IMG/VR virus record: IMGVR_UViG_3300046000_004988
Location: 1-62,356 of that record
Direction: 5' to 3' (one strand)
Source of the DNA: a virus
Taxonomy: Duplodnaviria > Caudoviricetes
DNA: 62,356 bases
In this document: positions 4,399-60,559 of the stretch, piece by piece
Layout of the letters: each line of letters begins with the position of its first letter
How positions within the stretch are numbered: position 1 is the stretch's first letter
Notes under the pieces: generated by a model
Database searches by the model: none
Seen by the model: only the letters and a program-made list of their open reading frames with translations
What the model was told of the DNA's origin: nothing
Made by a program: the position numbers and the translations under genes

Positions 4399-4637
4399 GC
4401 CTCTCCTTTTTCGGGTCCGAGTTCCGACCCGATGATTTCATCATAAACAACATTGAACCGCTTTTTCAAATTCCTGGTCGATGCGGACTCGTGCATGCTG
4501 CTCGATGACGTTATTTTCCGTGCCGTTCTCAGGAGCAATTCCATGTTTTTCATGCGCCACTTGATGTGCATGATTCGTAGCGAGTAAACTCCACACGCTA
4601 TTAGTATAACCACCAGTGATTCAATTTGATTTTCCAT
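4395..4637 (-). CDS. Small membrane-anchored hypothetical protein
   Basis: N-terminal hydrophobic stretch; ATGA overlap with terL. Confidence 0.6.
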   Translation of the reverse strand: MENQIESLVVILIACGVYSLRIMHIKWRMKNMELLLRTARKITSSSSMHESASTRNLKKRFNVVYDEIIGSELGPEKGEA

Positions 4638-4639
4638 CT

Positions 4640-27741: not shown

Positions 27742-27750
27742 TGTGATAAA

Positions 27751-27778
27751 AAGCTATGGTCTGGTTTTTGGCATGCAA
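27751..27778 (-). promoter_or_regulatory. Putative late promoter
   Basis: TTGCAT-N16-TAGCTT; shares GCTTG...GACCATAGCTTT with the element at 54148-54175. Confidence 0.5.
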
Positions 27779-27788
27779 GCGGAAATGT

Positions 27789-28466
27789 TTATTTCATGTA
27801 ACTGCGGTACTCATCTCCTGCCCACGTCTTGCACATCCATGGTCTTGGGTGGCTTGCCCAACATACAATTCTTGTGCCCTCCCTGGAGGTTGCGTGGAGT
27901 GGGTGTGACGCAGGAACGTAGTGGGCTTTGATTCCTGGAATAAGGTCATCCAAGTAACGCCGATCAATGCCTAAATTAACCATCTCTGTCGCAGAAAAAT
28001 CCATGACTCCCCAGATTGTTTTATGATCGGCTGGTCTTTGGACGCTGCGCTCTTGATCGAAACATTCAGCCACTACTCGATGGTCTCCATTCCAGATGCA
28101 AACACCATCAGACCACTTTGGGCGGAGAAAGTCGTGAATTCCGTAAATTGCGTTGGGTTCGCACGACATTGCTAAATCAGTGAATGGTTTCAGCGAGTCG
28201 CAAATAAGTGTATCAAGTCCAACAAGTATTGTTGGACCACAGAATCTGTACGCCTCAAGAACTGACCACCATCCGGTCCACTTTGTCCTCATGGGAACGT
28301 GCCAGTCTTCTGATGGCGTATCGGTGATGCAGTAGAACTTGAATCGAGCGTCTCTATTGTGAGCGTAGAACTGTCGGCGCAAGCACTCGGCGTGCTTTAT
28401 GTTGTAGTCTCCGCCTGAGCGGCAGACGACGACGAACGATGGATCTGATGTGGCGAGGTCAAGCAT
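27789..28466 (-). CDS. Glycosyltransferase-like protein (GT-A fold)
   Basis: FYCITD, GWWSVLEAY, ILVGLDT, HPRPW motifs seen in phage GT8-like proteins. Confidence 0.65.
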   Translation of the reverse strand: MLDLATSDPSFVVVCRSGGDYNIKHAECLRRQFYAHNRDARFKFYCITDTPSEDWHVPMRTKWTGWWSVLEAYRFCGPTILVGLDTLICDSLKPFTDLAMSCEPNAIYGIHDFLRPKWSDGVCIWNGDHRVVAECFDQERSVQRPADHKTIWGVMDFSATEMVNLGIDRRYLDDLIPGIKAHYVPASHPLHATSREGTRIVCWASHPRPWMCKTWAGDEYRSYMK

Positions 28467-46300: not shown

Positions 46301-49300
46301 CAGAGTCTCAAGAGCGAGTGCTGGCATAGCTTCCTTGGAATACATGGCGGCATGGTCCTGGAATGCCTGGAACTCTCCATGTGTGGAGAATGACCTTCCG
46401 TTTGATCCATGACCGAATATGTCGTGAACTGCCCTGAACAGGTCATTGTAGATGATTGGCTTGCCGTTTATGACGATACCGGACTGCTCAAGCGGAGGAT
46501 AAGCCTCTGCCTCTTGTGTTGCATTGTCACCGAGTCCGTCACTTGTCTTGAAGTAGAATAACCTTTTGTTGTTACGAACGTCATCGACCATTTCTGCACT
46601 GTCCTTGTATGGAGCACCTTTCCCTTCCCATGGCTCAATGCGATAACCTGCTTTCACCAAGGCTTCATATTGCTCCCTGGTCTCACGGTTGAATGCATTG
46701 TACGAATCGCGTGTTGCTTGGTCGATTCCTGCTGGGGCTGAGTCATGGTAGTCTGCAATCTCCTTGGAGATCTCTTCATTGAGCTTGGACTTGATTGGGG
46801 TGTTGGTACGCAGGAATTGATTGCGAACATCTTGGACTCCTGGGCTCCCTGATGCTGGTGCAGCCATAGGTTGAATGGTGGAACCAAGATCCTTCGCTTC
46901 ACCCCGTGGGTCGATCCGGCGCAAGTCAGCAATGGCTACATCATAGACCTTCTTGGCCTGCTTGCCTGCCTGCGTGTTCTTGAACATCATTTTCTTCAGC
47001 GTGGACACTGCTGCTGAGAAGAGGGATGCGATTGCTTCGAGTGCAGCATTGCGTTTGGCTGGTGTCTTGTTTCCAGCCATGGCTTGCTCAGTCAGACCAT
47101 TGTAGTGCTCCTTCTGCATGACCATGCGGCGGAACTCTGAGCCGATGACATACTTCCGGTTGCCGTGGCTCGTGTAGATCGACTTCACATACTTGATCTG
47201 CTCTGGCGTCATCATGCCGTAGATGCCATCGAAGAAGTCAATGTGATACTGTCCGCTCTGGATGTATTTGTCGGTCATCTTGTGACCCTGCTTCATCATC
47301 TCAGCGATGAGTGCCTTGTCTTCGAGCGCATGGATCATTTCTTCGCGCATTGCGTCGATGATCTGACCAGGACTCCATTCAGCCATGACCATTGGGTTGT
47401 ACTCGATGTAACCACCACGACGCTTGCCACCTTCACTCACAACGTAGTGGGCAGAGACAGATGAGAAACTCGGCACAAGATCGACTCCGATCTCTTTGAG
47501 CATTGCTCCGAAGTTGTCGTTGACGTGCGCTTTCACCAGGCTGGATGAACCGATTGGCTTTGATCGTGCTTTGGCAACCTTTGCTGCCCTCTGTGCATCG
47601 ACGTCACCGCTCGTGATGTTCTGCTGTGATGCAACGAATGCTGCGTTGATCTCAGAGATCTTCTCTGCCATCCACTCTTTGTCCGCCTCATCAGAGATCG
47701 ACTCCATGATGTTGGTTAGGCGAGCAATGATTCTCTTGATGAGATCAACGGCACTGCGGAAGAACTTGGTGTTCAGGAACATCTCCTCAGATATGCCTTT
47801 GCCGTGCCTGTTCTCCAGGTATGCCCTGAGATATTCATTGCCCCACTGGCTATCTGATCCGAGCACGTCGGTCTTGCCTTGTGAGTATGCAGCCCTGAAC
47901 TCGTCCTGGGCTTGCTCCGTGAGACCACGCCAGAACTTTCCTGCCTCGGCTGGTGTCATGACAGTGTCGATGACTGTGTGGAGGTATTCATGGAAGAATC
48001 CACGGTCCACGAACTCCTGCATGTCCTTTGCTGGAAGTGCTGCGAGTGACTTGATGAATGTGCGTGGAGCGATGTAGAGTGTATTACCCTGGACATACAT
48101 GCCACCACCATCAACCTCTGTGTCGAGTACCACAATCTTGTCGAAACTCGCTTCGAGCGTTGGCATGTGCTTCTTCAGTGCCACGGCAATCATTGTGCCC
48201 AGGCTAGCGTAGAACTTGGCGTCATCCTTGTGCTTGCCCTTGATGAGGTTGGCGATGACCTCGTAGACCTGCTGCACGACTGTCTTGTCAGACCCAGACT
48301 CATCAGGTTGCGTGAGTGTCTGCGTCATCAGCATTTCTCCGCGCTCTGTCTGCTGTGCCAGTGCGTTGATTGCCTCCTGCTTATCCTTCGCCTGATCGGC
48401 TAGTATTGTCAGAGTCCTGCCCCTGGTGGTCCTGATCGTCCACTGTGGTGCTGCTTTCTTAGACTCTGGTGCAGGTCGCTTGCTCTGCTCATCTGCTGGT
48501 CCAGATTCGGGTCCGACATCCGACCCAGCGTTTGTGGCTGGTTGCTGCTCGTCTGGTTTGACGTCGTCTGTGGTAGTGGAATCCGTTTGACCAGTTCCAG
48601 GAGGATTTCCAGCTTGAGTTGTAGGGGCGTTTTCATTGGTTGGTGTTTGAGTTGGGCTGGTTGTGGTGGTTGCTCCATCGACAGTGGTGTCAAGCATTTC
48701 AGTTGCAGACTCTGACAGGTTTTTCAATGCAACGATTGCGGCAGGGCGGGCATCTGCAAGACTGACTCCGGTCCTCACGATGCTGCTAACGATTAGATCG
48801 ACAATTTTACGGATGGAAGACCTGGCTTTTGGGGTCCAGCGACCATTTGCGTATGCAGCCATTGCTTCGATCACCTTGGCTCGTGCTGAGAGTTTGGAGT
48901 AGCCTTTGTAGAACGACTCACCGTTGATGCCTTGAGCCTCTCTCTCTGCCTTGTTCAGCAGTTCCTGGTTTTCCTGAATAACCAAAAGTGCTGCGGCATG
49001 ATGCATCTCTTCGTTGACGAGAGCTTCTCTGGACTCTGGTGTCTTCTTGATCTTGGCGATGTTGTCAGAGATGAACACGACGACTGGCTTGCCGTCCTTG
49101 ATGGTTACAAGTGCTGACCTGCCCTTGTTCTTTAGAGCGGCACCGATGAAGTCTGCTGCCTCTTTGTCGTTCGTGACAGTGACTGTCTGAACTCCTCGTG
49201 AATTTAGGTTAGACTCACGAGCCTTGGCTTTGTCTGAGATGCCGTTGAAGACTGGATGAGCGAGTGCCGACTGAGTTGGTGCTGGTGCTGCTTCAGTCTT

Positions 49301-52300
49301 TGCTTTGGATTGTGGCGTTACGACCTGACCTTTGGAGTAGACCAACTCGTACTTGCCTTCACCCACATGCTTCCACACGTCGACGTTCTTCGCGTCTAAC
49401 GAAGTTTGATGATTGCCCGCTGCGTCCGTTGGGAACATCGTCTTGCCCTTCGAGTGCCTGCCGGATTTCGACGGTTGCAACGATGGGTCAGTTGTCGTGA
49501 TGATGTAGTGATTTGGGTTCTGCCTGGCATAGTGCATTGCTGCTGCACCTTTCGCAAAGGACGGGAATGCCGTTGGTCTCTCTTTGAGACGCTCTGCAAG
49601 TGTGACCCCACCCTTGCTGTTTCCATTCGTTCTCACAAGTCCGCTCTTCACGATGTCCTCGAATGCAGCATCTCCAGTGACGATGCGGTAGTTCTCGTCT
49701 GGGTTGGCGAAGTCTGCCTCTGTTCGAGTGGTGCCAGAACCAGGGCTTGAACCTGGACCTCCCGCTTCATCTACTGTTGGCGCAGACCCCGAAGACGGAA
49801 TCGAACCGTCACCTTCAGATTTGCCGTCTGACGAGTTGCCTGTTTCTCCATTCGGGCTTGTTGCCTCCGCTCCTGATGTCGGAGATGGGGCGGAATCTTG
49901 CTTGGCTTTGGCTTCAGCATCAGCCTTGGCCTGGGCTTCAGCCTGCGCCTTCTTGGCGGCACGATCTGCTTCCTGCTGCTCGACGTCACGAGGGAAGTAT
50001 GTCTGACGCAGTCCAGGGGTCGCCTGGGCTACTTGAGCGAGACCTTCTTTGGTCCATGTGACCTCTGACCCATCTTTGACAGCAAGTGGTGCTCCTGACG
50101 CATCTGTTGCTTCCATGGCGAGTTGGTCACGCTGAGTGAGCGGTTGACCCGTCAGCACCTTCATGGAGGCAGTGATGAAGTCCTTCATCTTCTGATCTCC
50201 AACTCCACCGAGTTCCGTGTGGGCTTCGTATGCCAACTGGATCGCTCTGTTGCGACGACCAATGGCTTCGATGAATGCAGCTTCAGTCTGTGGCGTTGCG
50301 ACTCCCTGGTCCTTTTCCGCGAAGTACTTCTGGGACAGTTCCATGATCTCCTTGTCGCTCTGCTGGCGCTCTGCCGGATTGATGAACGACATGATGCCGC
50401 GAACGTCGTCGAGTTCGATTGGAGTCTGTGGGTTCTGCTTGTTCCAAAAGTTCACGAAGCCGAGTTCACCTTTGCGGATAGCATCCTTCTGTTTGGCTGC
50501 ATCAAAGATGCTCGACACGATTGCTGCTGACCCACCGATGAATGAGGCGAACAGACCACCCATGCCTTCCGTGACTGCGTCATTCCAGATCTTCTCTGTT
50601 GATCTGGCTTCATTTAGCAATCCTGAGCCGACACCTTCCATGCCTTCTGTGACTGTGCCGACACCGAGACCTTTGACTGTCTGGACCGCTGCATTGCGGA
50701 CTGTTGATCCTGGGACTGTGCCTGCCTGCTTGGCAATGGTGCCGAGTTCGTCCATGCCCTTCATCACTGAGTCGATGATTTTGTTAGCCGAGTTTGCCGC
50801 ACGACCAACATTCTTCGCTAATTTGGCGCTCTTGCCTGCTGCTCTCAACACGACCTGGGATGATGTGAGACCTTTAAGAAGACCATAACCAACGATGTCG
50901 CCTGCTGCCTCAACCATGAACTCACCAGGGTTGACCGAGATGCCACGAGCGGACATTTCCAGGACTGCGTATGCATCCGAGTTCTTGATGGTGCCGTTGA
51001 CTGATGCGTAGCGTGCTGCCTTTGCCACGTTGTCCTGACCTTCTGGTGTCTGGTAGAATGCCTCACGCAGGAGCATGGCGATAGCCGGATCTCTGGTCTC
51101 GTGATATGCCACCATCAGTTGAGCAACAGGTGCCTGCTTGTTGCGGATGTCGTAGTACGAGAGTTTGCCAGACTTTTGGTTATCGTAGTGTGCCTTGATC
51201 TCAGCGTCCGTGAGTTTCGGATTGAGTTTCTTGAGTGCAGCGAGTGACTCAGTCTCACCCTCGGTGATCTTGTGCATCGAGCCTGCCTTCGACTTCAGCA
51301 GTTCAGCGAACTGGTCGATGGTGCCCTTGGTGAGATTCTCATCCTCGATGGCATCAATGAGTGCGTCGACGGTATAACCAACTGGTGAACTAGGAAGCAT
51401 GCGCTCAGACATGTATTTGTCCACCGCTGCCTTCTTCTCGGCTTCAGTCTGGAATCCACGCATGCCTCCACCACCGAATCCACCACCAGCAACCATGCCT
51501 GGAGCGACTGGACCAGTGATGTTGGTTTTGCGCGGGTCGGAATCCCGACCCATCCACAATCCGCTGAACAGGTTCTTGGCTTGCTGTATGCCAGTCTCGA
51601 CTGTGAGTTTGAGCGTCTCAGGCGTGAACACTGCCTGGAGTACGTTAGGTGCAGCCTTGCGACCCATGGCGAACTCATCCTGCCAGAGAATGATGAGATC
51701 CTCCTTTGTGAGTTTCTCGCCTGCCATCATTTTGGACTTTGCGTTGGCGATGTCAGCTTTGTCGAGCGGGTCTCCCAGGAACTCTTGCTTCACTGTGCCT
51801 TCCTCGAACACTCCAGCATCTTCTGCTGCCTGATTGAGGATAAATCCGATTGTGCGACCAGCAGCACCAACTGTGGTAGCCATGCCGAGCATCGAGCCTG
51901 TGACATTGCTGCCCGTCTCACTGACTCCAGACCAGAATCGTTGTGCCAGTGTGCTTTGACCTCCTGAGATCTTGTCTGCGGCGGCATTGAATGCATGAGG
52001 ATCGAAGTCGGGCTGATCCGAGTGACGGTTGCGGTACTCATTGCGCCATTCCGTGAAAAGTTCATCACGGGCAGCGACGAGCATTCTGTCAGTCACGTCT
52101 GCGGCTGGTGCTGCCTCATACTCCCTCAGACGCTTTGCTGCGTCGGTGTCTCCTGCCTTCCAGGCTTCGTAGGACGCATCCGGCGAGGGCAGGATGGGGT
52201 TACGCCCATAAACTGCCTGATCGAGCGTCCTGGCCTGCTGTAGGCTGATGACGCCCTGCTTGTACAGGAGGCGGGCATCTGGCATTTCCTTGTCCATCTC

Positions 52301-54142
52301 CTTGAGGACACCTGCCGACATGAGCTTCCGGCGCTCATACTCTCCTGCGCCCTTCCAGTTCTCCACCAGGGCGGAGAATTCATCCTCCTCCATGCGGCGA
52401 GACTTCCAGGTCTTGTCGATGGTGCTCGACACCATGGCTGGATCTTGCCCGTTCGGGTTCTTGTCTGCCGCTTCCTTGACCTGCTCAATCTGCTGGGCTG
52501 ATGGTTCGGCATACTCTGGCACACCGCTGAACGGGTTCTGACTGCGATACGATGGGGATGCCGTCATGCCGCCCGCTTTCTGCGACAGGATGACCTCAGG
52601 CAGTCCGAGATCATTGTGGACGACATTGCCGACCTGCTGTCCATCCACCCACACGCCACCTTTTTTGTCATCTTTTCCGAGTTCGGGCAATGTGACCTTC
52701 AGCGTCTCGTCAGTGTGGATGATATCGGTGCCAGTCGCCTTTGCCGCCTCCCGTGCTGCTGTAGCCTCAGGAGTCAACCAGGAGGCTGGTGTGGCATCAT
52801 CTGCCGCCTTCTGTGCTGGCGTGCGTCTGGTGGTCTTGTTCTCACCCTGCTCCTTGAATCCCCACTCGTCGGCTGGCGCATCTGTTCCGTCTTCGATGAA
52901 GTGCGTGTTGGTCGTGTTCTTGGCTACATGGAAGAATGCAGGCTTGATGTTGCCATGACGTGCCTCTCCGTAGCTTGGCAGGTTGAGTTCTGGAAGCTCA
53001 GGTGTGTCGAATACGCTGCCTCCTTCCTTCTTGTCTCCTGTGATGTGAGGGAATGGCGAATTGAAGCCAGACTGTGGTTGGGACAGGTTCTTGATGTCCG
53101 GTGCCTTGACGACTGCTTCAGCCTGCTTCACCGGACCAGTGGCTGGGAGTGCTGAGACTGGGGTCGATGGTTTGGGTGCTGGTTTCTCTGCGTCTGGTGC
53201 CGTCTTTGCGGCTGACGGCATCGTGAGTGCTGCTCGACGGGAAGTCGTCATCAGCTTTACCTGCTCCAGGTTCTGACCCATCACGACTTTCTGTGTGGCA
53301 CGCTTGAAGTCTTCCTCGATTCCCCTGGCTGAGATTGCTGAGGCGTTTGCGGAGAGCTTCTTGGCAACCTGCTTCTTGGCTTCGAGATCTGCTGATGCTG
53401 CATCGACTGCCAGTTGGTCCACGGCACCTGAGTCCTTGTCTGACTGCAATGCTTTGAGCTTTGCGGATGACTCTGTCACTGCCTTGGATGCTTCGTCTTC
53501 TTCCGCCTTGGCAATAGCCTCATCCTTCTTGGTGGCAATGGTCTTCAGTTGGTTGTCTGCGTCGATCTGAGAAACGATGTTGGTGACTCGCGCCAGGTTG
53601 TCGTCGATGACCGCTTTGGCGTTCTTGGCATCTTCCTTCGCCTTCGTTGCTTGAGCTTTCTGCTCCTCTTTTGTCGATGGGGCGTTCGGATTCCAGTCTG
53701 GGTCTTTGCCAATAGCTTTCTGGCGATAGCCTGGAGGGGCACTGTATATCACACCATCCTTCTTGATGGTTGGTGCCTTGTCGTAAATCGACGACGTGGT
53801 GCCATCTTCCGAGATTAGAACAGGATCTCCTGTCTTTGGGTCAACAGGATGCTTTTGGCCTGAATGTTTGAGCAGGTATCCGTCGCCGGATGGTGCCTTG
53901 ATCTTGATGAGGTTCCCATCGGGTCCACGAAAGTGAGTCACTCGTGTTGGGGCGATGATCTCACTTTTGCTGACGCCTTCGTTGCTCTGCTCTTCTGGGT
54001 CGGAAGTCCGACCCGAAAGATACGCCTCACGTTCTGCTCGTGCTGCTGGTCCAAGACCCGATGACGTTGTGTCCATCGGTGATTGGTAGCGACGTGACTG
54101 TTGGTTGTAACCTCTGCGTGCTTGATTGAATGGGCTGGGCAT
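37337..54142 (-). CDS. Giant (5,601 aa) polyvalent / internal virion (ejection) protein
   Basis: Uninterrupted ORF; zincin-like motifs (EEMHH, HEYLH, EEMIH); MTase, SAM-lyase-like and HhH-like modules; C-terminal PFVRTPTNI segment resembling podovirus internal virion proteins. Confidence 0.88.
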   Translation of the reverse strand: MPSPFNQARRGYNQQSRRYQSPMDTTSSGLGPAARAEREAYLSGRTSDPEEQSNEGVSKSEIIAPTRVTHFRGPDGNLIKIKAPSGDGYLLKHSGQKHPVDPKTGDPVLISEDGTTSSIYDKAPTIKKDGVIYSAPPGYRQKAIGKDPDWNPNAPSTKEEQKAQATKAKEDAKNAKAVIDDNLARVTNIVSQIDADNQLKTIATKKDEAIAKAEEDEASKAVTESSAKLKALQSDKDSGAVDQLAVDAASADLEAKKQVAKKLSANASAISARGIEEDFKRATQKVVMGQNLEQVKLMTTSRRAALTMPSAAKTAPDAEKPAPKPSTPVSALPATGPVKQAEAVVKAPDIKNLSQPQSGFNSPFPHITGDKKEGGSVFDTPELPELNLPSYGEARHGNIKPAFFHVAKNTTNTHFIEDGTDAPADEWGFKEQGENKTTRRTPAQKAADDATPASWLTPEATAAREAAKATGTDIIHTDETLKVTLPELGKDDKKGGVWVDGQQVGNVVHNDLGLPEVILSQKAGGMTASPSYRSQNPFSGVPEYAEPSAQQIEQVKEAADKNPNGQDPAMVSSTIDKTWKSRRMEEDEFSALVENWKGAGEYERRKLMSAGVLKEMDKEMPDARLLYKQGVISLQQARTLDQAVYGRNPILPSPDASYEAWKAGDTDAAKRLREYEAAPAADVTDRMLVAARDELFTEWRNEYRNRHSDQPDFDPHAFNAAADKISGGQSTLAQRFWSGVSETGSNVTGSMLGMATTVGAAGRTIGFILNQAAEDAGVFEEGTVKQEFLGDPLDKADIANAKSKMMAGEKLTKEDLIILWQDEFAMGRKAAPNVLQAVFTPETLKLTVETGIQQAKNLFSGLWMGRDSDPRKTNITGPVAPGMVAGGGFGGGGMRGFQTEAEKKAAVDKYMSERMLPSSPVGYTVDALIDAIEDENLTKGTIDQFAELLKSKAGSMHKITEGETESLAALKKLNPKLTDAEIKAHYDNQKSGKLSYYDIRNKQAPVAQLMVAYHETRDPAIAMLLREAFYQTPEGQDNVAKAARYASVNGTIKNSDAYAVLEMSARGISVNPGEFMVEAAGDIVGYGLLKGLTSSQVVLRAAGKSAKLAKNVGRAANSANKIIDSVMKGMDELGTIAKQAGTVPGSTVRNAAVQTVKGLGVGTVTEGMEGVGSGLLNEARSTEKIWNDAVTEGMGGLFASFIGGSAAIVSSIFDAAKQKDAIRKGELGFVNFWNKQNPQTPIELDDVRGIMSFINPAERQQSDKEIMELSQKYFAEKDQGVATPQTEAAFIEAIGRRNRAIQLAYEAHTELGGVGDQKMKDFITASMKVLTGQPLTQRDQLAMEATDASGAPLAVKDGSEVTWTKEGLAQVAQATPGLRQTYFPRDVEQQEADRAAKKAQAEAQAKADAEAKAKQDSAPSPTSGAEATSPNGETGNSSDGKSEGDGSIPSSGSAPTVDEAGGPGSSPGSGTTRTEADFANPDENYRIVTGDAAFEDIVKSGLVRTNGNSKGGVTLAERLKERPTAFPSFAKGAAAMHYARQNPNHYIITTTDPSLQPSKSGRHSKGKTMFPTDAAGNHQTSLDAKNVDVWKHVGEGKYELVYSKGQVVTPQSKAKTEAAPAPTQSALAHPVFNGISDKAKARESNLNSRGVQTVTVTNDKEAADFIGAALKNKGRSALVTIKDGKPVVVFISDNIAKIKKTPESREALVNEEMHHAAALLVIQENQELLNKAEREAQGINGESFYKGYSKLSARAKVIEAMAAYANGRWTPKARSSIRKIVDLIVSSIVRTGVSLADARPAAIVALKNLSESATEMLDTTVDGATTTTSPTQTPTNENAPTTQAGNPPGTGQTDSTTTDDVKPDEQQPATNAGSDVGPESGPADEQSKRPAPESKKAAPQWTIRTTRGRTLTILADQAKDKQEAINALAQQTERGEMLMTQTLTQPDESGSDKTVVQQVYEVIANLIKGKHKDDAKFYASLGTMIAVALKKHMPTLEASFDKIVVLDTEVDGGGMYVQGNTLYIAPRTFIKSLAALPAKDMQEFVDRGFFHEYLHTVIDTVMTPAEAGKFWRGLTEQAQDEFRAAYSQGKTDVLGSDSQWGNEYLRAYLENRHGKGISEEMFLNTKFFRSAVDLIKRIIARLTNIMESISDEADKEWMAEKISEINAAFVASQQNITSGDVDAQRAAKVAKARSKPIGSSSLVKAHVNDNFGAMLKEIGVDLVPSFSSVSAHYVVSEGGKRRGGYIEYNPMVMAEWSPGQIIDAMREEMIHALEDKALIAEMMKQGHKMTDKYIQSGQYHIDFFDGIYGMMTPEQIKYVKSIYTSHGNRKYVIGSEFRRMVMQKEHYNGLTEQAMAGNKTPAKRNAALEAIASLFSAAVSTLKKMMFKNTQAGKQAKKVYDVAIADLRRIDPRGEAKDLGSTIQPMAAPASGSPGVQDVRNQFLRTNTPIKSKLNEEISKEIADYHDSAPAGIDQATRDSYNAFNRETREQYEALVKAGYRIEPWEGKGAPYKDSAEMVDDVRNNKRLFYFKTSDGLGDNATQEAEAYPPLEQSGIVINGKPIIYNDLFRAVHDIFGHGSNGRSFSTHGEFQAFQDHAAMYSKEAMPALALETLAYNAWFNAGKHLRREDGSLPVQGDKDFIPLSKRGYAPRKTYLFPQSLIDKAIGTRTEVTGSKDLRGDGRSFAKFFASVTQGAEDKFKPTGDYVPAIDLDPSSKAFQIARYRFRGNFDDHIATSIPGYDEVQAVVGSAIVKTFGDSGADMLDIGSSEGALNKAITGLSKGKIKTLGIDPNTSMEQTFKSKGSVEGAEFDLSAFGSKEDAGKTAWTEDDGTDVKFFDPKGRKFDVVHEAMVFQFISNARNAQVMRVKELMKPEGIAIFEQKFGDRKDVFDANESKKDLDWKSRHYTVEQLKQKRDAVLNSGGDQVEGMTALQVAHWEMEDVLRSNFKHVTQFWSSGNFRGYVASDSADTLSKFTSNLQSTDSEFATQATPRIVQPMAGPMSDPATLSDFDTAEGIKEIINKPGWAIFTAENPNKKRESDLRNAILNRGLMKSLQSDTLDHKQVDGHYGYPEKPFIVIDQGMSVQKAAALARQYGQESVLTTEGLVYPDGSYNPAQDVTIFDKKPDDNYTIVKTPTGNIIFSVNMDWDNKIQPMAAPASQTAPALAEIDRVLDLKKKMPSVITSRLEGGKVRTIAQIYRKLIKTSIRPGGNVNNAGDRMLEVLNRASFEFPKFASWYESRLKMAMNIFTQLDPDLVKPDNRAALLITLAVSSNGADVNTQTVDAWEVYKHWKKSGKLAGATKRGSTRAEAVEEHLALADKMAEHLGGFSNLGDFLNKTGTVKELRNELRKMHLWDKKEILGITTGELIDEIVPFSLIFGPKLGSFFNNMSGDFSTITMDRWFMRTIGRMMGTQLVRVDKGTLTKAWSRLNAALAEYDGDLFTIAGIPQKADLLTVETLGKHFQKKENRENLSPKDDAIRLAVNGLFKIADGFTLAEAPKNGTHRRWIRKVMINAIEKYNRTAKIPLVPAEAQALLWYYEKIVHQQHGSRQKDDAPDYGSAANRLYIKERGLPSSLYEDSDGIKPRSGGGRSAAFSGNQSVGTTQGSGDGTSRGDVAEMQPMAAPSSGITNESDAEFVESAVAEWQEVQEKARLASIEKNTIRSAWNQALKDAGPWYNKEKSPERTAKLEAVDSARSAMDKNEELVMARHEPIKGVYLRFGKLPEGGRSTNGYTGRKENGISVYNVRWEGGRWTIVDDGSGGATQESIIDDANRSILLVTGDDIDQGSDEEPVLSNIRVLKELNPNEIVPANWDAESWDEHHARGWTNQYMAAPKQNNIVEPGFYSHLQNVISVQLPDTLATKPGKTVKGRPIAERTITGKDGKILKVIRAGQEPDKVYPAQTVASQVKEIMEKAEVTSEEIKWSGIIPWLFTKESVTKEEVLDYLKTEGSTRFVERKLTERSRSFRDYMDIINDRMSLAGNYSKFEEDKKFIEERLDTWMSKGDPESIKYLQMITDLDIDEINPPGDGEIGYPQEKLRTIGGRNYREVIVTTSGQSEVTLKKGLEIKQMDSGRWNIWDSSTKGDGPGWVLAVGKETRDAVVGYARSDDMLAAENQQQFASSHYPEVPNYIAHMRIQDIDDGLLIDELQSDREKETRKKGLLEEQVAADKRRVEIENKGMSATPEEKKEWADIMSKHNGKLSGVPDAPFRRSAQWSMQLFKRALRDAVADGKGWIGWTSGEVQNKRSGLENRLSEVKMTKAFGGRDGRYYLTAYDHNFKRVIDTIIKPEELPNKIGNELAQKMNAMEWTTGKVEQANGSVTEETFKKLKGLDIKVGGKGMTDLYDKIVPTEVNEYLKQWGVKAEPSEITSTSGTTLSHRLNILNVSNFSIKNNINGTGKFGVWDFNLRRLVLDGVGEDGGNPISFDTKKDAEDWIVNGDREKIKISIWKVKITPEMRESIKDKGQPLFMAGPRHESPDAAESFLEQMMGELPSEAELEALRQMALSQKPGEKTIGDPDKANISKNEKIRVEYEVSQQIRSGDVSPEKVQDWIDQGRKMARNEDDVMNQVMSSYFEGGGFDSPELVFASAIVTARQFRRALQSGDPAQMREAHAMAYADGAGRSQTARAMRAMADPHKSPHERNMEYIAKLITTPSIRERIEIAAAPSPFAKQKQIAKLKAKLEEVKALLAESEKSRVRGKTHDDLIKQTKALSEEIKTQSEEKDRKTLIEEYTEARHKSVMDALAAQGISEEDIFVTPEERVNSHDSVPVREAMGMHPQEHQDAIRYIMRGYSHADVAVMTGLPRDVINTIHQDFRQKSLRGTIAKWVKRGNTLFDTIQSGIKYITGQSMAAPMPYNTAINNKLINAEVEIERQLNVLCPTAKQVNSGKMIVEIVDTKKNGQQVTIKVPYSPTDFRATYRVARAISISQSSAYDKMYEYWIMNLLSGPETNVVNVIGNILSSGIHILAQKPLETLWNIIFQDPNSAQMGEWKHIMRGIMPGIRDAFAMAALAFDSEADPIGHRYMDEPLEMTFDKAGQLDKVGRYRGPSIAGAKGRIFRLPGRSLMMVDSFMKALMGNIEVGAQAYRLGKQAQKAGLIGKSAADIESFIKAEVSTPGSKSWELAIDVATELAFQSETWMSAVARAFAQPNLGADQYQKKALDAAAAGNIKKMHDMRRAANAMMFIEHAMRFIFPFVRTPTNILRIGIRKSPIGAISLAAHVMTAFGKGATNIKNKKRFWANQDRATIVTLMAEQTQAWLTFATVFSMTEGDDDDDDKKLIIVGGRPSGTTSPGSRNEAYRNYGGTYMIIYRHNNGKETRVPFGRYDPIATVLGTTVDSIIEIKRMHKMRSLGLDGGSAMNATTNIIGSLMSQTEDKSFFQGYSNMVKTVDSLRRAGDAPSDLAYGFLKQIISGVVPNLLRQPLRNADPLVRDSKDKAELLYSALPLGIWAGPVVDYYGREVEKGGSPVSRIFIRAGNKATTREPAEEWITEWNNLHPDDKFQPTDLRANDYWVYGPKGERRMITDNSVKTTFEKAVGQEILRMHNNYVSGLKKSTSGKIISGKDNNVDLKNKLTNLASEAKKAVRTRFLKSPFASARNTID

Positions 54143-54147
54143 TCAGA

Positions 54148-54175
54148 AAGCTATGGTCCATTCCTTGGGTATCAA
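54148..54175 (-). promoter_or_regulatory. Putative leaderless late promoter of the giant gene
   Basis: TTGATA-N16-TAGCTT, 5 nt upstream of the ATG. Confidence 0.5.
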
Positions 54176-54260
54176 GCAGATTTCAGGCTAATATCCTGAT
54201 ATGGTATTGCGACACGAATCGCCCGAACGTGCGATGCATCGAACGCTTTGCGTCGATGAT

Positions 54261-54539
54261 CTATTTGTTCGGCTCACCAATCAGACGCCGCAGAAATCCG
54301 ACACCAAAAGCGCCGGGTATAGCCTCGCTGAATACATTATGCACAGCGATAGCTGGCTCATGAGTCGAGGTCTTTGCTTTAGCCCACGGGTTGCATTGTG
54401 GGCATGGCGTGTTCATAACGTCATCATCGGGTTCGGTTCCGGGGAGCATCCCACATCCGCCACAAGCCGAACAACGGCACTGCACCACAACGCCTATGGC
54501 GTTGCTGTCCATCGTGTTTTCAATCTCTGATTTCGCCAT
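54261..54539 (-). CDS. Cassette 1 ORF, CxxC zinc-binding hypothetical protein
   Basis: CSACGGCG...CPQC; start lies within the attC2 loop. Confidence 0.65.
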   Translation of the reverse strand: MAKSEIENTMDSNAIGVVVQCRCSACGGCGMLPGTEPDDDVMNTPCPQCNPWAKAKTSTHEPAIAVHNVFSEAIPGAFGVGFLRRLIGEPNK

Positions 54540-54553
54540 AGTCGTGTGTGAGT

Positions 54554-54805
54554 TTAGACGTTCGCCAGATATTCAGCGAGTGCTTGCCCGATCATCTTTC
54601 GGTCCTCCGCGCTCACTGGTTCCGTGATTTCCGAGAGTGCCACCGCGTGCAAGATCGGGCGTCCGTTGACGCTCAGAATCCATGCCGGGACGGTCACACC
54701 TTCGATGTTCGAGTGGAGATTCGCGCCGTGCCATTCCACGCGACCAACAGGCGAACAAGACGCTGGAGAGGAACCGCTCTTAACGGCTTTGTTTCGGAGT
54801 TTCAT
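54554..54805 (-). CDS. Cassette 2 ORF, hypothetical protein
   Basis: Start within the attC3 loop; stop within the attC2 R'-side spacer. Confidence 0.65.
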   Translation of the reverse strand: MKLRNKAVKSGSSPASCSPVGRVEWHGANLHSNIEGVTVPAWILSVNGRPILHAVALSEITEPVSAEDRKMIGQALAEYLANV

Positions 54806-55134
54806 GGTAGTTTGAAAGGTTTATTGTGTGGCGGAGTGCCGCTCCCAGAGCGGTCCCTCAGCTCAGCGTTAGCTGAAATCATTCGTTCCACTGCCGCCCA
54901 TGTCTCGGGAGTGTATCCAGGTGGAGGGTTGTCCACCGACCACCATGCCTCAATGTATGCTTTGCACTCAGCTTGATCCTCAGTCAGCGGAATGCCCGCC
55001 GACTCCAAGGCCTCGCAGAGCGCAAGGCCACAGCTGACAAGTCGTGTGAGGCAACGCCGCTCAGCTAACAAGGCGCTGGTGCCGACCATCTGGGGCGGGC
55101 TGTCGGACTTCGGTGTTTGGCTGGTTTCGATCAT
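54802..55134 (-). CDS. Cassette 3 ORF, hypothetical protein
   Basis: Start MIETSQ within the attC4 loop; ATGA overlaps at both ends. Confidence 0.65.
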   Translation of the reverse strand: MIETSQTPKSDSPPQMVGTSALLAERRCLTRLVSCGLALCEALESAGIPLTEDQAECKAYIEAWWSVDNPPPGYTPETWAAVERMISANAELRDRSGSGTPPHNKPFKLP

Positions 55135-55796
55135 GATTTTTGGACGGTTGAGTTTTCTCCGGTTTCGGCCCCAGAGGTCGGCACAGCTTTTGCGTTCTGT
55201 GTCTGCGCGATGAACGCCTCCACTTCTGCGATGGCGTCCTCGTCTTCGTGCTTCATCCATAGGTAGTCACTGCCCCATTGAGCTTTGCGGTCCTCGTATG
55301 CAGCCCACAGCACAGAGAGCATCTTGTCTCTCGCTGCCAGTTGGCGAGCGATGTCGCTTTTCGCGTGTAGGGACTCCGATGTCATCGCGCAGATGTGGCG
55401 GATGTAGTGCTCTCCGAGGCTTTCGGAGTCTTGGGCCGGATACACAGAGGCATCGCATGCAGGCAACGGCTCGGAGGTGGTCTGTTGTGTTTTCATAGTT
55501 ATTTGCTCGCGTTCCTGATCCGAGACGTTCGGCAGTTCAACAACGTAGTCATTCCAAGTCAAAAGACCTGGATCAACTTTGATTTTATCAAAGATTCTTC
55601 CACCGATAGCATAAGCATCGTCGTGAGATTCAGCTTCGATGAAATGAGATTCAAACGAGAGTGACCCTGGTCCAAGTTGCTTGAACGATTCAGGCAGAGG
55701 TGCCCCTGTCACTTTCTTGATGATCGAGTTGACCAGGTTGTGGTCCTCCAGGGTGACTTGGTTGACTCTTCCAATGATGTAGAGATACTTTTTCAT
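55131..55796 (-). CDS. Fusion of upstream gene (MKKYLY) with cassette 4 ORF (internal start MKTQQ at 55496)
   Basis: Reads through attC5 without a stop; the C-terminal part contains HICAMTSESLHAKSDIA. Confidence 0.6.
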   Translation of the reverse strand: MKKYLYIIGRVNQVTLEDHNLVNSIIKKVTGAPLPESFKQLGPGSLSFESHFIEAESHDDAYAIGGRIFDKIKVDPGLLTWNDYVVELPNVSDQEREQITMKTQQTTSEPLPACDASVYPAQDSESLGEHYIRHICAMTSESLHAKSDIARQLAARDKMLSVLWAAYEDRKAQWGSDYLWMKHEDEDAIAEVEAFIAQTQNAKAVPTSGAETGENSTVQKS

Positions 55797-55800
55797 GGCG

Positions 55801-56079
55801 TTATTTCGGGACGACTTCGAGAGATGTGAGTAGGACTGCTGCGGCAGCATTTGAATCCTTCGCCCTTTTGGTTAGGAGTGTGGCTGAGTTGATAACGTTG
55901 CGAAGAGCGTCACGCAGGCTGAACGCTTTGCCGTGCGTGCCACAGAAGATGATCCTGGCTGGTGACGAGTGGTCACCGTATCCTGCTGTCTTGCAGCCGC
56001 ATGGATACACCGTCTGGGTGCGTCCATCATGCTGGACTGTGTGCGGGTCGTTTGCCCATGTTGTGGATTGATCGCTCAT
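55801..56079 (-). CDS. Hypothetical protein
   Basis: 92-aa ORF with YPCGC...FCGTH. Confidence 0.6.
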   Translation of the reverse strand: MSDQSTTWANDPHTVQHDGRTQTVYPCGCKTAGYGDHSSPARIIFCGTHGKAFSLRDALRNVINSATLLTKRAKDSNAAAAVLLTSLEVVPK

Positions 56080-56085
56080 GATGAT

Positions 56086-56421
56086 TTAGATGATTGCTGA
56101 GGTTCCGTAGATGTGCTGGACCAAGACGCATTCCTGGTTGAGCAGAAGTTTGATGATGTTGATGATGTCAGTGACCTTGTGCTCGATATTGGCAATGGGT
56201 GATGTGATTGCAACTTCGAGCGTGATGCTTGCCTCCTCGACGAGTTCATCAGTGCCTGTGTTGACCCATCCTCCGTGACCTGAAGTCTCAGTGTATCCGC
56301 CAAAGATTTTGGCGACCTCGCGACGAATGACCTGGATGGACTTCTCAGGAGTTGGTGCCGTGATGGATTTGCCGTCCTTGTCTTTCTCGATGCCGAATGT
56401 GAATTTGATGCTTGAGATCAT
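56086..56421 (-). CDS. SAM-lyase/DUF3574-like protein (putative anti-restriction)
   Basis: FGGYT...GGW...EEAS...LNQECVLV pattern. Confidence 0.5.
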   Translation of the reverse strand: MISSIKFTFGIEKDKDGKSITAPTPEKSIQVIRREVAKIFGGYTETSGHGGWVNTGTDELVEEASITLEVAITSPIANIEHKVTDIINIIKLLLNQECVLVQHIYGTSAII

Positions 56422-56483
56422 GATAGTAGTTGTTTGTGTTATTGAGTTGGATTTGCGCGTTACAGTCGCGCCCCTGGTTTTGA

Positions 56484-56633
56484 TTAGCTATGACGGTTGA
56501 TTTCGACCCGTGCATCTGGGTAGCAATCCTGAAACATTTTAGCCGTGGCGATCGCTCCATTAAAGTCGCGGTCATCGCTATTGAGGATAAATGATGGGGC
56601 GTTTGAAGGGCTGATTGTGAATGAGTATTTCAT
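56484..56633 (-). CDS. 49-aa hypothetical protein
   Basis: Manual translation MKYSFTISPSNAPSF...YPDARVEINRHS. Confidence 0.5.
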   Translation of the reverse strand: MKYSFTISPSNAPSFILNSDDRDFNGAIATAKMFQDCYPDARVEINRHS

Positions 56634-56662
56634 ATTCGTGTGGCGTGTGTGGTGGCTGAAAA

Positions 56663-56908
56663 TTAGTGACGTGGGTTTGGGAGGATGATTTCGAGCGATG
56701 TTGGGTTGTGACCCGAATCTGCAAGATTTTTTATTTCGCGTGCCAGGATCTTTTCGAGTGCCTCAGCCAGGTCTTCATCGACTTCGATGAATTCAATTTG
56801 GTTTGCCTGGAGTGTGTAACGCTCTGCGCCCTTCCAGATGCCATTGGCACCCTTGGTATAGGTAGTCTGGCGATTAGCTTCGTCGATTGGGAATGTGATG
56901 CTGGTCAT
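56663..56908 (-). CDS. Early hypothetical protein
   Basis: ATG at the end of the conserved promoter-leader repeat. Confidence 0.65.
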   Translation of the reverse strand: MTSITFPIDEANRQTTYTKGANGIWKGAERYTLQANQIEFIEVDEDLAEALEKILAREIKNLADSGHNPTSLEIILPNPRH

Positions 56909-56995
56909 ATTGGTATTTGGTCCGCACAGGGGTTTTGTCTGGCGTGAGGAGAGTATGGGGTCGGACTTCCGACCCGTCAAATAGTTTTTGTCAGA
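56903..56995 (-). promoter_or_regulatory. Early promoter-operator-leader unit, copy 1
   Basis: AAAAACTA-TTGACG-N17(palindrome)-CATACT ... GGACCAAATACCAATATG; identical to 58962-59053 except for one indel. Confidence 0.8.
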
Positions 56996-57393
56996 TTCGC
57001 TCTTTTCTTTTTGATCGTTCCCCTTGGGTCTGGGTTGATGCCAAACAATTTCCTGAGCTTCGCCACCGTGAGGCAGAGTCGCACCTTGTTCTTTGGGTCC
57101 AGGATCTCGATTGCTGAACTGATCTGGAAATCCTGGAGCGTTGGCTTTTTGAATGACCTTGGTCGTATCCGTGGCTTGAGGTCTTTCGCTTGCTGGTCCT
57201 CACTCCATTCGCCCATGACGAGGATGAGTGACGTGAGCGGTATCCAGGCGCATCTGCCCTCGCCTGTCACCTGTGCCTTGTATGACTCCCTGTTGAGTCC
57301 GGTGATGGTTCCTCGTGCTCCACCCCATCCGTGCCCGTTGACGGCAACACGGCATCCGAGAGAAAAGTCTTGGTCGTTGGTCCTGATGATCAT
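56977..57393 (-). CDS. KOW/SH3-like small protein with basic tail
   Basis: FSLGCRVAVNGHGW...RGTI...AWIPLTSL; paralog of 61267-61446. Confidence 0.6.
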   Translation of the reverse strand: MIIRTNDQDFSLGCRVAVNGHGWGGARGTITGLNRESYKAQVTGEGRCAWIPLTSLILVMGEWSEDQQAKDLKPRIRPRSFKKPTLQDFQISSAIEILDPKNKVRLCLTVAKLRKLFGINPDPRGTIKKKRANLTKTI

Positions 57394-57412
57394 TGGTTAT
57401 TCCTTCCTGGTT

Positions 57413-57670
57413 TTATCTAAATGCACGAGCCAGTTTCCAGCAGTCTTCTATCCTCGTGTCTGGATTGATGCGGTTCCTAAATGTTGAGCCTGGACTGATG
57501 TGGTAGGCAATGGCTGGATCTTCGCGATCAACTCCGAACTCGACTTCGATTCCGCACTCTGAAATTGCGTCGTTGAGATCTTCAATTTCTTCATCGGTGA
57601 GTTCTATGATTCTCTTTTGAGACTGGTCCATGTTGAGTGCTGCTGTTTGATTGATTGAGTCCGGTTTCAA
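57413..57670 (-). CDS. Hypothetical protein
   Basis: 85-aa ORF; start uncertain. Confidence 0.5.
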   Translation of the reverse strand: MKPDSINQTAALNMDQSQKRIIELTDEEIEDLNDAISECGIEVEFGVDREDPAIAYHISPGSTFRNRINPDTRIEDCWKLARAFR

Positions 57671-57749: not shown

Positions 57750-57824
57750 TGGGGTCAGAGGAGGGGATCGAACCCTCTATCTTCAGGATATGAGCCTGAC
57801 GACTTGCCACTTGTCCTCTCTGAC
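57750..57824 (-). tRNA. tRNA with CAU anticodon (Met/fMet-like, atypical)
   Basis: GTCAGAG/CTCTGAC acceptor, TCAGG-CTCATAT-CCTGA anticodon arm, GAGGG-TTCGATC-CCCTC T-arm, encoded CCA. Confidence 0.8.
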
Positions 57825-60005: not shown

Positions 60006-60249
60006 GTGGACCCTCCTTGATGCTCCTGAATTCACTGATCTCTTTTCTCATTGAGTCGATGGATGCTTTGGTGATGAGTTCATCCACACTCGGAGGTGGT
60101 GGTGGCGAGAAGTGGAGGTGTGATTGCATGTCGTCATACAGACCGATCTCGATGCGTCCTGCGGCATTCCGGCATCGCTCAATGAGGTCATCGGCATCAC
60201 GCAGTTTACTCTTGAGCGCATCAACGTAGTTCTGTGGGTAATAGATCAT
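59995..60249 (-). CDS. Hypothetical protein
   Basis: Probable start MIYYPQ. Confidence 0.5.
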   Translation of the reverse strand: MIYYPQNYVDALKSKLRDADDLIERCRNAAGRIEIGLYDDMQSHLHFSPPPPPSVDELITKASIDSMRKEISEFRSIKEGPHDY

Positions 60250-60250
60250 G

Positions 60251-60559
60251 TTACCAGAGTTTGAATGTTCGGCCAAACGCCTCAGCCTTTTGACTGGCTT
60301 TGGCGTGAATGTCCACCTTGCTGAGGTGGTGCGTAAACACATGAGGACCACCAAGGACGACAATTCTGATGTTCTCGCGATACTGCGCCCAAGTGTAGTC
60401 TGGGATTGATGTCTCTGCCTGATACATGTCATTGAGGTCAGAGAAGTAATCTGGAATCCTGGCGAGTCTTCCATGCAATTGACCGTGCCAACTGATTTTG
60501 TTGATGTTTTTGTATCCTTTGAACTCGGCAATCTTGACCCGTTTGTTTGAGGTGTTCAT
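60251..60559 (-). CDS. Hypothetical phage protein
   Basis: IAEFKG...IPDYFSDLNDM...A.ASQKAEAF. Confidence 0.65.
   Translation of the reverse strand: MNTSNKRVKIAEFKGYKNINKISWHGQLHGRLARIPDYFSDLNDMYQAETSIPDYTWAQYRENIRIVVLGGPHVFTHHLSKVDIHAKASQKAEAFGRTFKLW

Follow-up and report, generated by a model that had tools for sequence, protein, structure and literature searches.

A candidate integrase-less, integron-type array of inverted and translated mini-cassettes in a lytic lake-water phage

Integrons are bacterial gene-capture devices, and their recombination sites are usually regarded as non-coding spacers that come after each gene. The bottom strand of an attC site carries a conserved AAC in R' and extrahelical bases near L'' (PMC5027507), attC clusters without an integrase (CALINs) have been reported from virulent phages (Qi et al. 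2023, PMC9892861), and T4-type phages carry PeSLs, which are intergenic promoter-plus-terminator units (PMC2839356). Inverted, translated, frame-keeping cassettes are not described in the open-access literature that we searched. Here, we have analyzed a 62,356-nt virus record (Duplodnaviria, Caudoviricetes; IMG/VR IMGVR_UViG_3300046000_004988), the whole of which is referred to as the window, and which comes from a lytic lake-water phage. Directly upstream of a 5601-aa ORF, five hairpin sites lie on the coding (minus) strand within 54222-55533. We read this stretch, with a probability of about 0.68, as an integrase-less, integron-type array of four cassettes (A-D) and a fused fifth gene (E). 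Its features are as follows, each site being named after the genes that it separates.

54222-54273, minus strand: terminal attC-like site after ORF A, with a 6-bp R box (CCGAAC/GTTCGG); z -3.06
54261-54539, minus strand: ORF A, 92 aa, with CxxC pairs
54268-54560, minus strand: cassette A as delimited in a preliminary description of the window (plus-strand TT..G), comprising the B/A site and the A body
54466-54566, minus strand: B/A site, from GGCGAAC to GTTCGGC
54554-54805, minus strand: ORF B, 83 aa
54750-54874, minus strand: C/B site, from AGCTAAC to GTTCGCC; z -2.75 and -2.98
54802-55134, minus strand: ORF C, 110 aa counted from the ATG at 55134
55063-55200, minus strand: D/C site, from ACAGAAC to GTTAGCT; z -3.0
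55131-55496, minus strand: ORF D, 121 aa, in frame inside the 221-aa ORF E that starts at 55796
55465-55533, minus strand: degenerate E/D site, from GCCGAAC to ..GCCGTT; z +0.45 and -0.97
55497-55796, minus strand: E portion of the 221-aa E-D frame, whose relatives match residues 97-208 only

The sites generally enclose the stop of the preceding gene, followed by the start and about 13-23 codons of the following gene. In the B/A site, B terminates (stop at 54554-54556) and A begins (ATG at 54539), with codons 1-22 of A included. The C/B site holds the stop and 21-codon tail of C, an ATGA at 54802-54805 and codons 1-16 of B, and the D/C site the 20-codon tail of D, an ATGA at 55131-55134 and codons 1-21 of C. 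At the two ends of the array, the terminal site contains the stop and final codons of A, while the E/D site contains the ATG of D (55496). E runs into D because a 2-nt difference from the version found in the related loci L001 and L028, an indel that was read by eye from alignments with both, puts a TAA out of frame at the E/D site. Five plus-strand GTTs (at 54267, 54560, 54868, 55194 and 55527) each correspond to an in-frame AAC, encoding Asn, on the minus strand, in the contexts EPNK-stop, LANV-stop, SANAEL.., TQNAKA.. and LPNVSD.. respectively. The body of A extends from the GTT at 54472-54470 to the AAC at 54269-54267, and that of C is bracketed by a private 9-nt inverted repeat, GTTAGCTGA/TCAGCTAAC. 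The four ATGs, both minus-strand ATGA overlaps, the five in-frame AACs and the read-through of the fifth ORF are all found where the preliminary description had placed them. It had also put every ATG in the loop of an attC site, but that of A sits in a stem arm. Similarly, its proposal that the sites supply stops and translational coupling holds for the stops, which do lie inside the sites, but only in part for the coupling, since an ATGA is present at only two of the four stop/start junctions.

As for the genes themselves, mismatches with homologues are concentrated at the third codon position, with counts for positions 1/2/3 of 7/3/23 in D, 9/5/30 in A (against the homologue in L010) and 7/5/25 in B (against that in L009), and the minus-strand ORFs are therefore the selected ones. 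Searches of Pfam and PHROGs with ORFs A-E and three neighbours returned no informative family: the sole family match of A is a weak one to a Q-like PHROG (E 0.018), and D matches PHROG 34533, of unknown function. D has 20 protein relatives, and it lies on eight viral and four metagenome loci in otherwise unrelated contexts; a search of viral contigs with the D alignment gave these eight loci again. No relatives were found for C among viral contigs, for the E part (55497-55796), or, in the search for related loci, for the N-terminal 500 aa of the 5601-aa ORF, and nothing matched when 54100-57500 was compared by blastn with 50,697 phage records.

One coding-strand architecture is common to 16 junction elements, namely the five window sites and 11 sites in six loci, most of which derive from only about seven independent contigs. 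An R box of 4-7 bp with AAC/GTT is followed by an internal loop of ~5/4 nt (clean in six cases), a helix of 3-4 bp, a bulged base and a helix of 6-8 bp, beyond which come a second bulge and a variable interior of 1-94 nt. This architecture is strongly asymmetric, with 22 single-base bulges on the GTT arm of the coding strand versus 3 on the AAC arm, or 20 versus 3 if L016, a homologue of the window B/A site, is left out. In 8/16 elements the first bulge is a C, the energy of the fold in which AAC:GTT pairing is enforced equals that of the free fold in 11/16, and z-scores at real gene junctions range from +0.45 (E/D) to -5.1. The terminal site, for example, displays a 5/4-nt unpaired spacer, a 12-bp stem with one bulged C and one bulged T in its GTT arm, and a loop of 3 nt, and its stem shows a compensatory change in the L001 homologue (CATCGA/TCGATG versus CACCGA/TCGGTG). 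The D/C site has the same 5/4 spacer and bulged C and T on the GTT arm, with a 20-bp stem, and its homologues in L002 and L028 keep the architecture with different stem sequences. As a control, we folded with the same script 13 of the 15 attC repeats of a Vibrio integron present in phage record MK672802. The GTT-arm bulge asymmetry is there on the bottom strand, as it is on the coding strand of the window. The window genes are thus inverted relative to ordinary cassettes, which bears out the earlier claims that the junctions are attC-like and that the ORFs are antisense to the attC top strand.

Sequence conservation does not extend as far as the fold. The 7-nt consensus RYYYAAC/GTTRRRY is fully matched on either box in none of the five window sites, whose R boxes read GCCGAAC, ACAGAAC, AGCTAAC, GGCGAAC and GCCGAAC, with only the triplets constant; canonical GTTATGT and GTTAGGC are present on related bodies in other contigs. 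Since no integrase is present and this consensus is unmatched, we call the sites attC-like rather than strict integron attC sites. A scan for the strict architecture on both strands of the whole window gave eight hits, of which four (three distinct sites) fall inside 54226-55196. A cruder test was negative. Among perfect stems of at least 8 bp with symmetric trinucleotide/complement flanks, AAC ranks only 21st of 64, and inverted repeats of at least 8 nt with GTT in an arm number 4 versus 2.2 expected in the early region, which is no clear global excess; inverted repeats of that length occur at about 1.5 times the shuffled expectation throughout these genomes.

Homology with other phage contigs stops at the predicted AAC triplets, ending or beginning at those at 54267, 54560 and 55194. 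The D body is common to the window, L001, L002/3, L004, L005, L006-8 and L028/9, in surroundings that are otherwise unrelated, and the homology ends exactly at ..ACACAGAAC, with the end at ..CAGAAC in the window, L001, L002, L004 and L028. For B and its relative in L009, homology ends at GCGAAC plus one base, and for L016/17 it begins at GAAC; the B/A site itself is 90% identical to L016/L017, where the flanks are unrelated, and a search for an exact 28-nt pattern from it matched two contigs only. Loose contig ends in four lake metagenomes fall at 54266/7, 54559/60/64, 54753 (within the C/B site), 55194, 55451/2 and 55510, and five of these six places are at most 2 nt from a predicted triplet. 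Homology breaks and contig ends thus agree with the crossover at the in-frame AAC that had been put forward beforehand. An alternative crossover for D at the out-of-frame AAC 55513-55511, where the blastn match with L001 starts, was rejected on inspection by eye, as a weak match, interrupted by a 2-nt indel, extends as far as 55529. The sCGAAC motifs near the ORF ends at ~60999 and ~60269 were also excluded as sites, being out of frame and without a GTTCG partner.

Cassette A (54267-54560) moves as one unit. It recurs in two other lake metagenomes, in an 823-nt contig of run X7 (0 mismatches, 100%) and in a 4024-nt contig of run X10 (1 mismatch, 99.7%), with different flanks on both sides in each (segments matched in X7 and X10: 54266-54560 and 54267-54564). 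Moreover, when both ends of a single gene body are compared, they agree past the triplet over a mean run of 5.1 nt (5.09; n=11), versus 1.6 nt (1.62; n=13) for the neighbouring ends across one site, and the matching sequences are specific to each body (AGCTGA, CGCCCT and CGGGGTG, for example). The two cassette ends are therefore complementary, and the R box would be restored on circularisation. The standard polarity, in which a gene is followed by its own site, was rejected since cassette A travels with its upstream site, since one leader-plus-D combination is joined to five different tails, and since the frame rule applies at AAC, not at GTT. Tails vary widely: 14 different ones are found in the D family behind an invariant TQN, and two tail families recur behind unrelated genes with the frame unchanged, in keeping with the swappable C-terminal tails suggested in the preliminary description. 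Breaks on the GTT side are found as well, at 54470-72, 54753, 55451/2 and in L010 and L016, and bodies that are 98% alike in L001 and L005 have different leaders; such breaks are unpredicted by a single-crossover integron model.

At the folded sites, the AAC is in frame 0 in 10 of 11 distinct upstream genes, compared with a baseline of 46% (528 of the 1158 AACs in the 43 long ORFs of the window), for which a binomial estimate gives p of about 0.003. The wider tabulation that had been called for therefore comes out above chance. The probability of 1 in 81 originally attached to five matching frames is nevertheless wrong, because AAC is itself a codon, and one already in frame 0 in 46% of cases (as are 17 of the 35 GTTs inside the array ORFs), and because the sites had moreover been picked by eye. 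A stop in the AAC frame follows within 2-22 codons at 14/16 sites, the two without one being the window E to D junction and positions 818-932 of L028. Similarly, frame-0 [CG]CGAAC motifs are followed by a stop within three codons in 8/38 cases, versus 3/84 in the other two frames and 3/67 on the opposite strand. On the GTT side of 12 ORFs, at least two frames are used (eight in one, three in another and one ambiguous), and cassette C of the window appears from its sequence to use the third (TTG-TTA). Hence the statement that any rearrangement preserves frame and coupling was too strong: 2/16 sites lack the stop, 1/11 AACs is out of frame, and both the GTT-side frames and the GTT-side breaks count against a universal rule.

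These observations suggest the following mechanism. A cassette consists of an attC-like folded site and then a gene body, the site preceding the gene, which is the reverse of bacterial integron cassettes. The interior of the site carries the stop of the preceding gene, followed by the start and first 13-23 codons of the cassette's own gene. Exchange would take place where the coding-strand hairpin has its 5' foot, inside the AAC, between AA and C (between G and TT on the plus strand), probably by a tyrosine recombinase that acts on folded single strands and would be provided in trans, either by the host or by a co-infecting phage. Since bodies nearly all end in an Asn AAC and sites nearly all stop that frame, a new upstream gene would be correctly terminated, often overlapping the next start. 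Leaders and tails would be translated, and the array may form one transcript. More broadly, and at slightly less than even odds, we propose that lytic freshwater phages share a pool of such mini-cassettes, exchanged by integron-type, structure-specific recombination at sites within coding sequence, with an in-frame Asn crossover ending every body. Any cassette placed behind any other would then yield a terminated upstream gene, a coupled start and new combinations of N-terminal leader and C-terminal tail, with the recombinase acting in trans from host or co-infecting phage.

The record, which has terminal repeats, encodes no tyrosine or serine recombinase and no IntI, as TIGR02249, PF00589 and PF00239 are all unmatched over its 62,356 bp, PF00589 is likewise unmatched in the records of five relatives (two of them rated 100% complete), and no intI, attI and Pc, the marks of a complete integron, are found beside the array. 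As regards the transcription from phage early promoters suggested in the preliminary description, a consensus scan places one promoter-like site upstream of the array, at 56980-56952 on the minus strand. Between 54143 and 55850, the same scan, in which counts are not above those in shuffles, reveals no minus-strand promoter-like or terminator-like site; since there is none inside the array, the sites are not PeSLs.

The lack of an encoded recombinase fits another explanation, in which the hairpins are mRNA elements involved in processing, stability or translational coupling, and shuffling occurs by ordinary or micro-homology recombination at their conserved feet, in a PeSL-like manner. Stems and bulges are indeed on the mRNA-sense strand, stop and start codons lie inside the stems (in two cases as ATGA), the feet (sCGAAC and TTGTTCGsC) are the only sequence common to different sites, breaks occur at both feet, and PeSL-mediated shuffling with mini-circles is published (PMC2839356). 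We nevertheless consider this unlikely. A role at the RNA level would not lead one to expect a better match between the ends of one body than between the feet of one hairpin, pairing in the D/C and C/B R boxes spans only about 4 bp within the array, the breaks are precise to 0-2 nt at the triplet, fold and strand asymmetry are those of a real integron bottom strand, and Rfam has no match in the array.

The integron resemblance could also mean an ordinary CALIN, that is, bacterial cassettes with canonical attC sites that were captured by a phage and are recombined by a host IntI. Precedent exists, with 17 CALINs in phages and 5/6 phage attC sites recombined by IntI1 in an assay (Qi et al. 2023, PMC9892861), and in other lake contigs the bodies attached to the D leader open with canonical GTTATGT and TTGTTAGGC. 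However, the window genes are on the bottom strand and, to judge from the sequence, are translated through the sites, the R boxes are off consensus, and the D family is found only on viral and metagenome contigs, with 0 hits in genome contigs across 185,579 species (one genome each). This makes an ordinary CALIN decidedly improbable. Finally, ordinary phage mosaicism with inverted repeats and in-frame AACs arising by chance, which could draw on AAC being a common codon (46-49% of ORF AACs are in frame 0), on the general excess of inverted repeats and on the negative flank test, is hardly credible, as it conflicts with the way in which break points, fold and self-matching ends coincide, with the frame bias and the [CG]CGAAC stop bias, and with the clustering of strict-architecture hits in the array.

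In the integron-type reading, the window would present an integron-like folded site ahead of a gene in a lytic phage, encoding the end of one protein together with the beginning of its neighbour and being cut at a codon that preserves the frame. If this is correct, recombination sites and reading frames have co-evolved, and phage accessory genes may be exchanged ready-to-express between unrelated phages, as cassette A might be, which is found in three contexts across lake metagenomes (0-1 mismatches). It would explain in concrete terms how phage early regions come to be mosaics of orphan genes, would set a natural precedent for coding sequence with attC sites inside it, and would amount to a natural system for the combinatorial assembly of operons and protein ends.

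How the array compares with known systems can be set out as follows. Like the phage CALINs (PMC9892861), it is a row of small, same-strand, promoterless genes that folded AAC...GTT sites separate, in a lytic phage that has no integron integrase, and a DNA methyltransferase is among the cargo, here in the related array L028. It is set apart from that published description by a site that precedes the gene, by a coding strand that is the analogue of the bottom strand, by genes that would be translated through the site and across the crossover, and by R boxes of the form sCGAAC/GTTCGs, not RYYYAAC/GTTRRRY. With the attC sites of a sedentary chromosomal integron (the Vibrio anguillarum fragment in MK672802) the window sites share the AAC/GTT R box, a spacer, a helix with two bulges on the GTT arm and a variable interior, as well as, with features defined as in PMC5027507, a crossover at the AAC of the bulged strand and mutually complementary cassette ends. 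In contrast to the Vibrio sites, their spacer is ~5/4 nt versus 2/2, the bulges are C and T and 6-8 bp versus 3 bp apart, the sites differ from one another in sequence, there is no intI or attI, and gene orientation is reversed. The PeSL cassettes of T4-type phages (Arbiol et al. 2010, PMC2839356) likewise involve a plastic region of a lytic phage, in which small accessory genes are shuffled at short conserved structured motifs, and a circular intermediate is plausible. Unlike PeSLs, the window sites overlap coding sequence, show the attC-type asymmetry and have exact triplet crossovers. Last, Nivina et al. reportedly embedded synthetic attC sites in arbitrary sequence in 2020. Common to those synthetic sites and the array is the idea that an attC fold, being recognised by its structure, can be written into other, even coding, sequence. 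The synthetic sites are engineered, while the array would exemplify the same thing in nature and would add a convention of reading frame at the point of crossover.

The array at 54222-55533 consists of minus-strand cassette genes (A-D) and an upstream frame (E) fused to D:

54261-54539, minus strand, ORF A, cassette gene
54554-54805, minus strand, ORF B, cassette gene
54802-55134, minus strand, ORF C, cassette gene
55131-55496, minus strand, ORF D, cassette gene
55796 (start), minus strand, frame E, no stop before D, reads into D

A preliminary description had read these genes as inverted cassettes in which attC-like hairpins at the gene junctions (sites) provide start and stop codons and lock the frame at an Asn crossover codon. 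This interpretation is correct in its main lines, with the universality of the frame-lock overstated. Every fact reported is present in the sequence, including both ATGA overlaps and five plus-strand GTTs (54267, 54560, 54868, 55194, and 55527) that are in-frame Asn codons. Its estimate of how often matching frames arise by chance is invalid, since 17 of the 35 GTTs inside these ORFs are in frame 0, and so are 46% of the AACs when 43 long window ORFs are counted. D has 20 related proteins (E 1e-26 to 1e-59), and mismatches to relatives at codon positions 1/2/3 number 7/3/23 in D, 9/5/30 in A, and 7/5/25 in B. Judged by this concentration of differences in third positions, the minus-strand genes are real, which removes the possibility that plus-strand ORFs are the ones expressed.

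The window is an entire virus record, 62,356 bp long and ending in direct terminal repeats, in which the minus strand carries all large ORFs. These include one of 5601 aa (37337-54142), which the array adjoins on the upstream side, among small genes, and whose sole Pfam match is DUF3293 (E 3.2e-6, residues 230-300 of its second half). A consensus scan found no promoter-like or terminator-like sites inside the array. A tRNA gene lies among the early genes (57753-57824, minus strand; Rfam RF00005, 56 bits), besides which an Rfam search of the window returned nothing. A 111-aa ORF (56086-56421, minus strand) matches PHROG 3543 and, weakly and under the cut-off, the S-adenosylmethionine lyase family PF23780 (E 2.8e-4). 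Contigs of two lake-water metagenomes contain 97-99% of the window's sampled words, those of many other metagenomes 10-16%.

Sites were folded with DNA parameters, and stability was scored against dinucleotide shuffles, which elements at real gene junctions exceeded. In the window, z was -3.0 for the site between D and C (D/C), -2.9 for C/B, -1.9 for B/A, and -3.1 for the terminal site after A, with values down to -5.1 in related loci; the degenerate E/D site was unstable (+0.45 and -0.97). On the coding strand, helix diagrams of 16 elements reveal one common architecture. The hairpin foot is an R box, (s)CGAAC(G)/(T)GTTCG(s) with s being C or G, which pairs over 4-7 bp and opens into an internal loop of ~5/4 nt. 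Beyond the loop, two bulged bases on the GTT arm interrupt the stem, a C between a 3-4 bp helix and one of 6-8 bp, and a T after the latter; additional helix and then a variable interior complete the element. Clean examples are the D/C and terminal sites, L028 1073-1153, and L002 5349-5462 (L numbers denote related viral or metagenome loci), whose stem sequences are unrelated; six other elements show the architecture in part. Over the 16 elements, the GTT arm carries 22 single-base bulges and the AAC arm 3. A strict scan of the whole window for attC-like architecture passed four further places, which may be due to chance:

13737-13604, minus strand, attC-like architecture
9180-9044, minus strand, attC-like architecture
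20552-20595, plus strand, attC-like architecture
60223-60269, plus strand, attC-like architecture

As a control, we ran the same folding script on 13 of the 15 attC repeats of the integron in Vibrio phage record MK672802 (integrase at 27091-28053; cassette genes mostly top-strand), where bulges lie in the 5' arm on the top strand and in the 3' arm on the bottom strand. The attC bottom strand is described as having the conserved AAC in R' and extrahelical bases near L'' (Nivina et al. 2016, PMC5027507). By this definition and the bulge side in the control, the array coding strand behaves as an attC bottom strand, with the AAC crossover opposite the bulge arm as in integrons. The shared fold and the control thus bear out the sites as attC-like, and the bulge side supports the cassettes as inverted.

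A further comparison concerned the ends of the bodies, the gene parts between GTT and AAC. Past GTT/AAC, the two ends of one body are complementary over a mean run of 5.1 nt (11 bodies) in body-specific sequences, while for the two feet of one site within an array the matching run averages only 1.6 nt (13 sites). Such self-matching ends would not be expected if the sites were RNA hairpins or if exchange relied on micro-homology. In integron cassettes, the R box is restored on circularisation, so the ends of a cassette are complementary, which is the same feature as found here.

Most break points lie at or near these triplets. The D body (~250-317 nt) is the only sequence common to the window and L001, L002/3, L004, L005, L006-8, and L028/9, and D homology ends at ..ACACAGAAC in the window, L001, L002, L004, and L028, followed by five different sequences. 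Homology between B and L009 extends through GCGAAC plus one base; 100 nt at the B/A junction have 90% identity with L016/17 beginning at GAAC, with unrelated flanks; and L010 has the A body in common with the window, starting at TTGTTCGGC. In an independent test, contigs of four lake metagenomes placed on the window had loose ends at 54266/7, 54559/60/64, 54753, 55194, 55451/2, and 55510. Segment 54266/7-54560/4, which is exactly the cassette A proposed earlier (B/A site plus A body, plus-strand GTT to next GTT), is embedded in two contigs, one of 823 nt with 0 mismatches and the other of 4024 nt with 1 mismatch, both flanks differing and new tails following the same Asn. GTT-side breaks were also found (54753, 55451/2, L010, and L016), and bodies 98% alike carry different leaders, the site-encoded N-terminal codons. 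D leaders and tails reassort in all combinations, which we cannot account for by one crossover per site; the opposite strand may occasionally recombine as well. A perfect 12-nt inverted repeat is also present in the D body (55202-55213/55382-55393, 168 nt apart).

Among the genes upstream of folded sites, 11 are distinct; 10 of these read AAC in frame 0 and one, at L010 316, in frame 1. A stop follows within 2-22 codons at 14 of 16 sites, after a single codon at seven. Across 13 sequences, sCGAAC was followed by a stop within three codons in 8 of 38 cases in frame and 3 of 84 in other frames. TQN followed by 14 different tails occurs in all 11 extended database D proteins and in the forms from the window, L001, L002, and L004, in support of swappable tails. 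Two tail families, N-VPALAQS.. and N-TDYPHPKCD, reappear after genes that are unrelated, with the frame unchanged. TTGTTCGs occurs 13-23 codons past ATG in 12 ORFs, in two frames (8, 3, and 1 ambiguous); cassette C of the window (GTTAGCT, outside this motif scan) shows the third frame, TTG-TTA, by inspection. Since a site and its own gene travel together, an AA|C crossover predicts a fixed frame at AAC and none at GTT. In-frame crossover and site-encoded starts and stops stand in their main lines, but not as a universal rule. At two sites (window E to D; L028 818-932) the AAC frame has no stop and neighbours are fused, the E-D fusion accompanying a 2-nt difference from the L001/L028 site version that shifts TAA out of frame (by eye). 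L005 D is an exception in the D family, having a leader but ending ..TQKA with no Asn; nine minimal D forms likewise lack Asn at the end.

Minimal D, a gene of 85 or 81 aa (L006 4998-5243; proteins P0012-P0020), lacks the leader and tail as well as GTT and AAC; it may represent a cassette gene that either has not yet been captured or has become fixed. In L006 it has ATGA overlaps on both sides, and two genes upstream is a 564-aa ORF (3020-4714) read as a portal gene. L028 1-150, identical to L029, folds into a closed multi-helix region upstream of D, with three hairpins, each capped GCGAAGC, within a long closing stem GCGGAACTTCA...TGAAGTTCCGC; its appearance suggests a non-coding element with a defined structure. 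The last unit of the 2-kb L028 array (1699-2037) is a DNA methyltransferase with a DPPY motif, whose first 24 codons lie within an attC-like site; methyltransferases are likewise named as cargo of published phage CALINs, attC clusters without integrase (PMC9892861).

The window record encodes neither IntI nor a tyrosine or serine recombinase, and PF00589 had no match in the records of five relatives, from which we infer that exchange must use a function supplied in trans. The open-access literature searched yielded no published description of inverted, translated cassettes. The nearest non-integron model is provided by the PeSLs of T4-type phages (PMC2839356). Within integrons, virulent phages are reported to carry CALINs, and IntI1 recombined five of six phage sites (PMC9892861).
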